Virus record (IMG/VR): IMGVR_UViG_3300009788_000219 | Coordinates: 1-34,052 of that record | Source: a virus | Lineage: Duplodnaviria > Caudoviricetes | Length of the DNA: 34,052 bases | Direction: 5' to 3' (one strand) | Shown here: piece by piece, positions 2,769 through 31,674 of the stretch | How positions within the stretch are numbered: the first letter of the stretch is position 1 | Layout of the letters: every line of letters starts with the position of its first letter | Made by a program: the position numbers and the translations under genes | Notes under the pieces: model-generated | What the model was told of the DNA's origin: nothing | Seen by the model: the letters and a program-made list of their open reading frames with translations, nothing else | Databases searched by the model: none

Positions 2769-2803
2769 CTCCTGGGTGTGTTGTGTTACAGTGCCCCAGG
2801 AGA
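2768..2803 (+). promoter_or_regulatory. Hairpin occluding the RBS of the first lysis-cassette gene
   Basis: TCTCCTGGG (2768-2776) pairs perfectly with CCCAGGAGA (2795-2803), which contains the AGGAG RBS of the ATG at 2808. Confidence 0.55.
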
Positions 2804-2807
2804 TCTT

Positions 2808-3416
2808 ATGTCAGATTTACAGATTTGGGTTGTAATTGCAGCAGGACTTATCCTTTTAAGTTTTATTTTTTATCTCTTTATAAAACGAGGAGGTAAAATA
2901 ACAACTCCTTATGCTTCTGTTTATATTCCGGATGTTGTCAAAACTGAAGGTCCTTTATCTGAAGAATTAAGTTATTTATATAATAGTACTCTTCCTCAAA
3001 TTAGAGCTGCTTTTGAGCAACGCTTTTTGAAAGAATTAAAAAATAAAGGGATCCCTTCAAATTGGTGGCTTGAAATGGAAGATTATAAATTTTTCCGTGA
3101 AGCTATGGGTAATATTGTGTATTCCGGAAATGGAATCAATTCTATAAAAACTATTTTGGAAAAGGAAGTATGTCAGCATAAAGAAGTTAATGATCGTTAT
3201 ATTCAAAATGTACTTTCCAGATTAAGTGAATGTGCTCGAAAATATTTAAATGTTCAATATGAAGATCATGTTTATGTAGCCCCAGGTGAAATGAGAGAAC
3301 GGATTATAAGTAGCATTGAAGTTTTTACTTTTTGTCAAGAACTATTTGAATCAGTTATTAAAGAACATGTAATTTATTTGTTTGCAGAAAAAGAAAGAAT
3401 ACAAACAGAGAGGTAA
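2808..3416 (+). CDS. Single-pass membrane protein, lysis-cassette associated
   Basis: N-terminal TM helix (IWVVIAAGLILLSFIFYLFI) followed by KRGGK. AGGAGA RBS. Translationally adjacent to the endolysin. Confidence 0.7.
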   Translation: MSDLQIWVVIAAGLILLSFIFYLFIKRGGKITTPYASVYIPDVVKTEGPLSEELSYLYNSTLPQIRAAFEQRFLKELKNKGIPSNWWLEMEDYKFFREAMGNIVYSGNGINSIKTILEKEVCQHKEVNDRYIQNVLSRLSECARKYLNVQYEDHVYVAPGEMRERIISSIEVFTFCQELFESVIKEHVIYLFAEKERIQTER

Positions 3417-3418
3417 AT

Positions 3419-3898
3419 ATGAAACGATACACGTATAGAATTGCCCATCTTGAATCTGTACCAGATATAGATGTTGGAGATATTATAAAACCGGATCAGA
3501 AAATCGGAAGAATGGGTAATACAGGGAAATCAGAATGGCCTCATCTGCATCACGATGTTATTCATGAATATATAACGAGAATAGTTAGACTCAAACAGAT
3601 AGGCTATGAACCACATCATATATACGCACCAAGTATTGAACAATTGAATCATTTTACGGATAAAGGTTTATTCCATTTTCCTTTAGTGATTACTACTCCA
3701 TTTTATGATCCTCAATATAAAATTGATTGGGATAAAGATCATCCAGCATATGATGTAGTGCCGGAAGATAGAAAGAGAACAACTGATCATTTTGATATAT
3801 TCTTTAACAGAACAGAAATAGAAGGTATTTTGTTATTCAAGGGTTATGATTATCAAGGTGGATATGGAAACTACGCATTAATAGGATTTGAGGTGTAA
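3419..3898 (+). CDS. M23-family peptidase endolysin, circularly permuted
   Basis: AHL...VGD...DQKIGRMGNTGKSEWPHLH at the N-terminus. ITTPF...HPAYD...GGYGNYALI at the C-terminus. Confidence 0.85.
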   Translation: MKRYTYRIAHLESVPDIDVGDIIKPDQKIGRMGNTGKSEWPHLHHDVIHEYITRIVRLKQIGYEPHHIYAPSIEQLNHFTDKGLFHFPLVITTPFYDPQYKIDWDKDHPAYDVVPEDRKRTTDHFDIFFNRTEIEGILLFKGYDYQGGYGNYALIGFEV

Positions 3899-3899
3899 T

Positions 3900-4139
3900 A
3901 TGGAATACAAAGACATGAAGTTTATGGATGCTGTAAAGTATCTTCCTACAAGAATAGTAAATGCTATTTCTAAACTTTTGGGAATAAAAGGTATTGTACT
4001 GTATATAACCTATAGTATGATCACTAATGATCATATTCCGGAAAGTGGAATAGTATATGTTTGGATATTTATTGTTCTTATAGTTGTTTTTGGCAGGGAA
4101 GCTTTAACTTTTATAAAGGATCTTAAAAAAGTGGGGTGA
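3900..4139 (+). CDS. Putative holin
   Basis: 79 aa with two hydrophobic segments and a basic C-terminus. Follows the endolysin. GAGGTG RBS. Confidence 0.65.
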   Translation: MEYKDMKFMDAVKYLPTRIVNAISKLLGIKGIVLYITYSMITNDHIPESGIVYVWIFIVLIVVFGREALTFIKDLKKVG

Positions 4140-4540
4140 GTAATGTGGATAAAAAGATTATTATTATTATTATTCTTTCTCTCATTATCATTGGTCTTAT
4201 TTGGTTTGGATTTTCAAGAGGATCTTACTTTGAAACTATTATTGAGCAGATACAGGGACAACGAATCAGCCTTATTAGATCAACAGCGATTATTGAATCT
4301 GAAAATAGTAGAGTTAGAACTGAATCAGCAGAGCTCAGAAAAAACTATATTCAGTCAGAGCAGAACAATATCAAATCAGAAGAAGATAATATCCGACTCC
4401 AAACAGAGAATAAATATTATAGAGGAATCATCGGAGAAATCACAGCAGGAAGTAAAGAAACAGACCAGTACCTTGGGGAATATGGGAGAATCACTGATGA
4501 CTTTGCAGAGTTCCTTCGACAAGCGACAATTACAGATTAA
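4136..4540 (+). CDS. i-spanin-like protein (N-terminal TM plus coiled coil)
   Basis: KKIIIIIILSLIIIGLIWFG followed by a heptad-rich region. Sits after the holin. GTG start at 4136 or 4145. Confidence 0.6.
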   Translation: MSNVDKKIIIIIILSLIIIGLIWFGFSRGSYFETIIEQIQGQRISLIRSTAIIESENSRVRTESAELRKNYIQSEQNNIKSEEDNIRLQTENKYYRGIIGEITAGSKETDQYLGEYGRITDDFAEFLRQATITD

Positions 4541-4625
4541 AATAATGAAATATGTTATATTAGGGTTAGCAGCAGTTGTAACCGCTGAGACAGCTTATAT
4601 TGCAATAGATTATTGGTTTGAATAA
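4143..4625 (+). CDS. Overprinted spanin-partner-like protein (signal peptide, coiled coil, C-terminal TM)
   Basis: Signal-like MWIKRLLLLLFFLSLSLVLFG, an S/Q/L-rich coiled coil, and C-terminal YVILGLAAVVTAETAYIAI. GGGGTGA RBS. No cysteine. Confidence 0.6.
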   Translation: MWIKRLLLLLFFLSLSLVLFGLDFQEDLTLKLLLSRYRDNESALLDQQRLLNLKIVELELNQQSSEKTIFSQSRTISNQKKIISDSKQRINIIEESSEKSQQEVKKQTSTLGNMGESLMTLQSSFDKRQLQIKIMKYVILGLAAVVTAETAYIAIDYWFE

Positions 4626-4642
4626 GCAACAATTGTATGAAT

Positions 4643-4680
4643 TCAACTATAGTTGACAAAATTAAAATTTAGGATATTAT
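4643..4680 (+). promoter_or_regulatory. Sigma70-type promoter with an overlapping 14-bp palindrome
   Basis: TTGACA (4653-4658), a 16-nt spacer and TATTAT (4675-4680). Palindrome TCAACTATAGTTGA at 4643-4656. Confidence 0.6.
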
Positions 4681-30498: not shown

Positions 30499-31674
30499 TT
30501 ATTTCTTTTTGGCTTTTTTGGCTTTATAACAGGCCATTTCCAAATCGCAGTCATCACATTCCGGATGTTTTCCATAATCAGGGCCAAACTTAAAATCTTC
30601 AGGACATTTACTTTTAGAAGATTTCTTTTTGGGAGATGATTTAGAATGGGATGTCGTCGAGGAAGTCTTCTTCTTGTTGCTCTTTTTTACTTTTTTTTTG
30701 GCAACTACAGGTTCTTCTTCTTCGTCATCATCCTCATCATCGTCCTCGTCATCTTCTCCATCAGAATCATCATCGTCAGCATCATCTTCTTCGTCTTCTT
30801 CCTCGTCATCATCTTCATCAGAGTCATCATCATCAGGTTCGTCACCTTCTTCTTCCTCCTCTTCTTCATCATCAAGTTCTTCTTCATCTTCATCATCACT
30901 GACTTCATCATCTTCACCGAAGTAGAATTCTTTGATTTCCTTATTAGTCATAAGTACAAGAGCTTCATCCCAGGAAAAAGCTTTATCAATATCAGAATCC
31001 GGAACAGGTTTTTTCCTGTCAATAAAAGAAAACTGTTTGAACTGTTTCTTTTTATCTTCCGGAACGAGAAACTTAACAATCTTACCTTCATCTTCAACTT
31101 CATAAAAGGCAATAACACCCTCACCATCAGCACATTCTTTTGCAGCATCTGCAAGTTCATCACCAAATATAAAGGTGGAAGCATCAAAGAACATGATTTT
31201 ACCTTTGTCTTCACCTGTCACAGGTTTGACATTGTAAACAGCTCTTCTTTTGGCTCCCAAATTAATAGCCAGTTTTTTAGTTTTTTCACTGCCGGATTCA
31301 TTGTATTCATCCCATAATTCTCTGGAAGCATCACATAAGGCACAGGGTTTTCCATAATTTTTCTGGAGGCAAAGAATATCTTTTGTTTTGTTCACATTCT
31401 TATGAACATAATATTCCATTGAATAATGCAGATCACCCACTTCCAGATCTCCGGAAGCTACCTTTGGGAATAAATCAGATTTAATTTCAAAGGGAATGAT
31501 ATTAAATCTGTTTGATTTACCTCTTGTAACTTTGAATACTTCAGGTTTTTTCTTCAATTTTTTAAAATCAAAAACTCCAGTATAAGAAGACATTCCCCTG
31601 GCATTATTGGTATTAACATGGGATTCAACCCTTTCAGATCCTACTTTTCTTGATTTTTTCTTTTTTGTAGCCAT
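30499..31674 (-). CDS. T4 gp32-like single-stranded DNA-binding protein with an acidic linker and Cys4 tail
   Basis: FNIIPF, YYVH…LC…YGKPCALCD zinc motif, KRR.VYNV, and a long D/E tract. Confidence 0.8.
   Translation of the reverse strand: MATKKKKSRKVGSERVESHVNTNNARGMSSYTGVFDFKKLKKKPEVFKVTRGKSNRFNIIPFEIKSDLFPKVASGDLEVGDLHYSMEYYVHKNVNKTKDILCLQKNYGKPCALCDASRELWDEYNESGSEKTKKLAINLGAKRRAVYNVKPVTGEDKGKIMFFDASTFIFGDELADAAKECADGEGVIAFYEVEDEGKIVKFLVPEDKKKQFKQFSFIDRKKPVPDSDIDKAFSWDEALVLMTNKEIKEFYFGEDDEVSDDEDEEELDDEEEEEEEGDEPDDDDSDEDDDEEEDEEDDADDDDSDGEDDEDDDEDDDEEEEPVVAKKKVKKSNKKKTSSTTSHSKSSPKKKSSKSKCPEDFKFGPDYGKHPECDDCDLEMACYKAKKAKKK

Follow-up and report, generated by a model that had tools for sequence, protein, structure and literature searches.

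We found that two genes, which we call A and B and which are written over nearly the same nucleotides of a phage contig in two different frames, are both conserved and are both real genes. The window, by which we mean the whole stretch of 34,052 nucleotides that was analysed, has head, tail and baseplate genes of myovirus type and replication genes resembling those of T4. We propose that this overprinted pair is a lipid-free two-component spanin which fuses the inner and the outer membrane of its host, probably a spirochaete, and we regard the chances of this reading as evenly balanced.

On the (+) strand, the order of the genes is an M23 peptidase, likely the endolysin (3419..3898; Pfam PF01551, E 5.9e-8, over the cut-off), a holin-like membrane protein of 79 aa (3900..4139; so called for its size, hydrophobic stretches and position, and without family match) and the overlapping A and B, all of them upstream of the head protease gene. 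B has 160 aa, begins with an ATG (4143..4625) and is in the +1 frame of A; A begins with a GTG, which may be the one at 4145 (131 aa, 4145..4540) or the one at 4136 (134 aa). The sequence-only reading, an earlier note on this DNA, had two ORFs sharing 398 nt in different frames, which is what we find with the start at 4136; with the start at 4145, where the alignments of homologues begin, the overlap is of 396 nt and A lies entirely within B. The same reading had supposed that ATG 4143 and GTG 4145 could use one ribosome-binding site, and indeed the Shine-Dalgarno-like GGGGTGA (4133..4139, (+)), common to both starts, ends 3 nt ahead of the ATG and 5 nt ahead of the GTG. Its TGA is the stop of the holin-like gene, so that A might also be started from GTG 4136 by a coupled restart. 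Purine-rich motifs are found ahead of the double start in the homologues as well. Past the stop of A there remains a stretch which belongs to B only (4541..4625, (+)) and which encodes the C-terminal helix of B.

Ahead of the lysin, the gene at 2778..3416 (+) encodes an N-terminally membrane-anchored protein without known family, which is probably part of the lysis cassette; similar-looking genes occupy this position in L004, L026, L103, L104 and L140, and in other cassettes its place is taken by a coiled coil bearing a C-terminal helix. The gene at 1912-2730, the second before the lysin, encodes a multi-pass membrane protein with a weak C-terminal match to a LuxR-type HTH, possibly a membrane-bound regulator, which is also present in L026. 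Between the pair and the head genes (4653-4680) there is a sigma-70-like site with 11/12 of the consensus, in a promoter scan whose overall result was at chance level.

It could be objected that only one of the two frames is a gene, the other being a shadow held open by composition. Gene callers do mostly record one frame: the database proteins are mostly A, with 18 found by word search and 32 profile matches (some of them generic), against 1-3 for B. Since alignment-driven scans gave no confirmed locus, we searched for loci with DNA patterns of about 40 nt, which cannot themselves force 330-400 nt of a second frame open. The 42 metagenome pattern matches contained 16 family members (one being the window's own contig), the 26 without profile match being discarded; two of the four genome pattern matches were family members. 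After removal of the duplicates L003, L005, L006, L043 and L053, the family set comprised 21 distinct loci including the window, 15 of them complete and 6 cut by contig ends. An interruption of one frame in homologues, which had been named beforehand as telling against the pair, was looked for: all 21 loci keep the B frame open throughout the overlap and have neither frame interrupted, while the third frame has 3-23 stops over the span of A. When either frame was randomly recoded with synonymous codons, 0 of 5000 trials kept the other free of stops, and this held at every one of the 15 complete loci (8-16 stops being expected). In 12 other genes of the window, the +1 frame runs without a stop for at most 28-81 codons. 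In 10 chosen pairs of close loci, which are not fully independent, purifying selection acts on A (dN/dS about 0.40, Fisher p 6e-4) and on B (dN/dS about 0.27, p 1e-7), and the changes altering both proteins are depleted. The tail of B is conserved past the stop of A, and its p-distances (0.38, 0.34 and 0.52 at codon positions 1, 2 and 3) make the third position the most variable, as in a coding frame. Hence the recoding result, the selection in two frames and the conserved tail effectively refute the shadow reading, whose probability we consider negligible. The family also varies by heptads: most indels are of whole heptads, and two conserved residues of A are separated by 47, 54, 61 or 68 residues, a series in steps of 7, in 34 of 40 rows and by 51 or 65 in the other 6. 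Elsewhere in the window (30646-31317, (+)), an ORF of 223 codons without family match lies antisense to the acidic low-complexity tail of a gp32-like gene; it is probably a shadow frame.

A has a strong N-terminal membrane helix (residues 5-23), an acidic coiled coil and a conserved C-terminal motif, EYGxINxDFAxF. Hydrophobicity was calculated by Kyte-Doolittle and by a biological hydrophobicity scale to which no position terms were added; the sum for the helix of A runs from -1.7 to -7.2, and Lys stands ahead of it, which is the signature of an inner-membrane signal anchor. The N-terminal transmembrane segment and coiled coil announced for this ORF are thus borne out by the helix, by the heptad pattern and by an all-helical model. 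B begins with a signal-peptide-like segment (residues 1-21), an appearance due in part to the Ile-rich codons of A, which is followed by a mostly basic coiled coil (22-136) and by a weakly hydrophobic C-terminal helix (137-159). An acidic residue stands within this helix in 15 of 15 full-length homologues, and Lys or Arg follows the tail in 3 of 15 homologues of the window family. What had been said of the start of B, of its coiled coil and of its lack of Cys therefore stands, but its C-terminal hydrophobic helix turned out to be just weakly hydrophobic and to carry that acidic residue. The net charge is acidic for A in all 15 complete loci and basic for B in 13 of them. AlphaFold predicts each protein as one unbroken helix without hinge (mean pLDDT 88.5 and 90.5; pTM 0.37 and 0.42).

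Neither A nor B of the window has any Cys; across the 15 complete loci, one Cys lies within the membrane helix of an A and another in the tail of a B. A lipobox scan of all six frames of the window gave zero candidates. A possible lipobox (LSSAC) occurs in one B of 15, that of L032 (L032:3903-4313 (-)), which, if lipidated, would resemble a unimolecular spanin. In searches by sequence, neither A nor B had a family match in Pfam; NCBIfam and the PDB sequences gave matches to generic coiled coils only, PHROG one weak match of unknown function for B, and the spanin models no match to either protein. In 50,697 annotated phage records nothing matched A, B or the lysin of L051. The ESM Atlas returned unnamed clusters only; in the top cluster of B the commonest phylum, known for 10 members, is Spirochaetota, and the recognition is below threshold.

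Published spanins of both classes need a lipoprotein (PMC6139136, PMC9636201). Like the two-component spanins (lambda Rz/Rz1, P2 LysB/LysC), the pair lies in the last slot of the cassette, is made of overlapped genes in frames 0 and +1 of which the second is missed by gene callers, and has an N-terminally anchored coiled-coil subunit, A, with the predicted topology of an i-spanin. Unlike them, it has no lipoprotein o-spanin with a lipobox Cys, its partner B being instead a coiled coil of full length which has a helix at its C-terminus, and it lacks the periplasmic Cys for intermolecular disulfides, which are missing from about 4% of known two-component pairs (PMC6139136). The start of an embedded o-spanin lies, in about 70% of cases, at 0.4-0.5 of the length of the i-spanin (PMC6139136); here the genes A and B begin at most 2 nt apart, and it is the i-spanin-like gene which is embedded. 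The unimolecular spanin T1 gp11 resembles B in its export signal at the N-terminus and its hydrophobic helix at the C-terminus; it has a lipobox and works alone via beta structure (PMC6139136, PMC9636201), whereas B has no lipobox (with the one possible exception in 15), is predicted to be all-helical, has a weak tail and is always found with A. The pair is outside the two-component spanin family as defined, yet most plausibly works like one. Kongari et al. 2018 report no spanin in 91 of 677 genomes, about 13% of the surveyed phages of diderm hosts, in a search which relied on the lipoprotein and left arrangements of another kind, for instance an i-spanin of type I in the inner membrane, out of consideration (PMC6139136). 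A study of Leptospira prophages predicted spanins near M23 genes by lipobox search, and its text as available has no lipid-free overprinted pair (PMC8705779); nor was such a pair described in the literature that we searched, which included few subscription papers.

The surroundings of the pair are those of a lysis cassette. The first or second gene upstream of the pair is a small membrane gene in all 15 complete loci; 13 of them also have a lysin-like gene nearby, the remaining 2 being too short. These small membrane genes are of about four unrelated types (by eye) and the lysins of three unrelated types, M23, YkuD-like (a weak match, E 0.02) and DUF261, in carriers which are myovirus-like and podovirus-like genomes, including a circular podovirus-like contig of 35.9 kb. 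In Spirochaetota the slot after the lysin and the holin-like gene could be followed at DUF261 loci, DUF261 being present in 20 of the 401 genomes of this phylum, that of G001, and in 0 of 14 controls. The slot is filled by canonical pairs of an i-spanin and a lipoprotein (L102, L111, L123, L125), by overprinted pairs whose A is a lipoprotein (L095, L103), by overprinted pairs with a membrane-helix A and a window-like layout (L110, L112) and, once, by a partly overlapped lipid-free pair (L106). The spanin-like role put forward in the sequence-only reading is backed by this slot and by the canonical spanins found there in other Spirochaetota prophages, and we hold it highly probable that the pair performs the outer-membrane step of lysis, by whatever geometry.

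A lysis accessory without membrane fusion, that is, a regulator of the holin, a factor releasing or positioning the endolysin or a second pore former, would also explain why the pair always adjoins a holin-like gene, and membrane accessories which are not spanins exist, for example Lcc6 and the Mu releasin (10.1101/2024.01.23.576932). Such a reading is improbable: the holin-like genes beside the pair are of about four unrelated kinds and the lysins of three types, and in one and the same slot the pair alternates with spanins of the canonical type.

Some loci of the family have peculiarities of their own. Two genes before the lysin, L050 encodes a lipoprotein of 109 aa (L050:2355-2684 (-)), which was not seen in other family loci and is therefore not a general o-spanin. 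In L004, a second overlapping pair, truncated at its 5' end, comes right after the intact one (L004:3635-3941 (-)); it has a B-like C-terminal helix (HHalign 15% to B), is followed by the apparent end of an M23 gene and is probably the scar of a cassette swap, of which no further copy was found among viral contigs. Between the portal and head morphogenesis genes of L002 there is an HNH-endonuclease-like gene (L002:1452-2111, by eye), absent in L001.

The host of the window phage is likely a spirochaete, judging from the company kept by related sequences. One copy of the family is in a Spirochaetaceae MAG beside a DUF261 gene, on a free circular phage contig assigned by binning; another is on a 3.2-kb contig of a Cloacimonadota MAG, also a binning assignment. 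The earlier guess of a spirochaete thus gains from the first copy with its DUF261 lysin and from the distant family in Spirochaetota described below, and is weakened by the second copy. Among the 401 genomes, the close-family B and holin profiles match strongly in G001 only. Two phage-host matches in G001 were rejected as host evidence, one of 71 nt being the phage's own tRNA-Met and one of 33 nt lying outside any repeat array.

With the B protein of L110 as query, 16 of 191 genomes were matched, and 13 of them have an overprinted pair (L138, L139 and L141 have none). The distant pairs with a membrane-helix A start with ATGTGG or GTGTGG in 9 of 12 cases, as in the window. Their B aligns with that of the window family over its full length (HHalign 96.6%, E 5.8e-10, scores which coiled coils and membrane helices inflate), with a best score of 20.2 bits against at most 3.6 for reversed controls; A of the window family gave no alignment with the distant A proteins (HHalign 3.7%). 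The A profile matched 31 other genomes, weakly and mostly in long coiled-coil proteins. Two of these matches were examined: L092 proved unrelated, and L095 led to the lipoprotein variant.

In this variant, which occurs in Spirochaetota genomes (L095:1401-1845, L103:1013-1589, L142:1395-1878), a lipoprotein coiled coil is overprinted with a type I membrane coiled coil. The two-frame layout is the same, and in L095 and L103 the pair comes after a holin-like gene and a DUF261 lysin; with its lipoprotein A and its strong-helix B, it is the mirror image of the window pair. Its homology to the window family is weak, B reaching an HHalign probability of 67% on 34 columns and A giving no alignment (HHalign 0.5%). 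We did not find these lipoprotein-A overprinted pairs in print; they fit a topology which Kongari et al. 2018 suggest and did not find (PMC6139136), and the window pair goes further in having no lipid. The pair of L142 and another intact two-frame pair, L136:1467-1947, have no phage genes in the 3.4 kb around them, the genome of L136 being of 1.1 Mb; these two pairs are possibly retained by the host.

The strength of the B tail follows the type of anchor in A. The hydrophobicity sums of the tail are -3.4, -2.2 and -2.8 in the three pairs with a lipoprotein A (L095, L103 and L142), and, where A has a membrane helix, -0.8 to +1.9 in 13 distant pairs and +1.6 to +8.8 in 15 pairs of the window family. 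There is no overlap between the 3 and the 28: a lipoprotein A goes with a strong membrane helix in B, and a membrane-helix A with a weak tail. The Mann-Whitney p of 0.002 is overstated, since there are only three lipoprotein pairs, of which two are 54% identical and one, L142, is without phage context; moreover L130 and L140, classed as having a membrane-helix A, have an Ala-Cys inside the helix which could be a lipobox. The simplest reading of this relation is that the two anchors must occupy different membranes, B forgoing a strong inner-membrane helix wherever A occupies that membrane, which supports the opposite anchoring claimed in the earlier note.

If so, the polarity might still be that of the lipoprotein variant throughout, with B in the inner membrane and A reaching the outer membrane by its N-terminal helix. 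This would give all overprinted pairs, L095, L103 and L142 included, a single polarity. It is very improbable for the window pair, where the helix of A is very hydrophobic and preceded by Lys, like an inner-membrane signal anchor, and where the weak tail is that of B.

The main rival of our proposal is a spanin-like pair with both proteins in the inner membrane, A through its N-terminus and B through its C-terminus in the manner of a type I protein, in which the distal tip of an antiparallel rod (the amphipathic C-terminal motif of A and the processed N-terminus of B) would act on the outer membrane by inserting into it or by grabbing a host outer-membrane protein. Among the distant pairs, 1-3 Lys or Arg come after the B tail in 12 of 13 and several tail sums are near zero, which fits an inner-membrane stop-transfer helix; B is clearly inner-membrane-like in the lipoprotein-A pairs, and a type I inner-membrane protein is named as a possible i-spanin by Kongari et al. 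(PMC6139136). In the window family, however, the tails have sums of +1.6 to +8.8, the acidic residue in 15 of 15 and a following Lys or Arg in only 3 of 15. Placing both anchors in one membrane neither predicts that tail strength tracks the anchor type of A nor provides a second anchor to pull on, and we consider it rather unlikely.

The binding of A to B was modelled by co-folding their periplasmic parts, a heteromeric coiled-coil model having been proposed as a check in the earlier note. The score was 0.46 against 0.00 for the best control, the controls being not stated to be coiled coils; the runs agree in at least 96% of the contacts, with a partner pLDDT of at least 85 and no interface given. 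The co-folding mark is reached by 116 of 157 solved pairs and by 2 of 215 mismatched pairs, and the weak band of scores up to 0.60, into which our value falls, contains 18 solved pairs and both mismatches. Co-folding lends weak support to the binding of A to B. A crude e/g charge score over 30 heteromeric registers put full antiparallel zipping first, at -2.4 (a favourable value in 14 of 15 loci), and the in-register parallel arrangement last, at +2.2; the homodimers, at -2.4 and -2.8, score as well as the best heteromer. The best antiparallel register sets the anchor of A beside the tail of B and opposes the two conserved distal motifs. A fusion zipper would be expected to end in this state, but a rod anchored twice in a single membrane would have this shape too, and the charge optimum also fits the main rival.

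We come back to the lipid-free spanin with its anchors in two membranes. The helix at the N-terminus of A would hold it in the inner membrane. B would be exported and lose its signal peptide, and its weakly hydrophobic C-terminal helix would take the role of a lipid by docking in the outer membrane. The ends of the rods remote from their membranes would meet, the C-terminal motif of A with the N-terminal motif of B, and once the endolysin has removed the wall the rods would zip antiparallel, drawing the anchor of A next to that of B. One shared stretch of DNA and one ribosome-binding site would keep the rods equal in length and co-expressed. For the placing of the B tail in the outer membrane and the antiparallel zipping, which are the inferred mechanism, we see equal weight on either side; counted against this model is that no route was identified for a helical tail into the outer membrane. 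SNAREs and class I viral fusion proteins fuse membranes through the zippering of anchored coiled-coil rods, and SNAREs zip in parallel with both anchors C-terminal. A and B show no sequence relationship to these proteins, and their geometry is predicted to be antiparallel, from N-terminal anchor to C-terminal anchor. Hence the comparison of the earlier note with SNAREs fits loosely, an antiparallel arrangement being needed here.

A broader reading, which we put forward tentatively and whose chances we place somewhat below even, is that of a third class of spanins, widespread in spirochaete phages: a lipid-free two-frame fusion pair with an alpha-helical tail in the outer membrane and an antiparallel zip, whose subunits would have swapped membranes between lineages, so that a lipoprotein A goes with an inner-membrane B, or an inner-membrane A with an outer-membrane B.

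The pair likely breaks the outer membrane of spirochaete-type hosts in a manner not yet described. A lipid-free pair hidden by overprinting would be a testable answer to part of the missing-spanin gap and, if true, would change the annotation of lysis cassettes in spirochaete phages. If the tail of B does reach the outer membrane, it would reveal a route for helical anchors into that membrane. The pair would be a minimal bacterial fusogen of two helices, with rod lengths locked by the DNA which they share.
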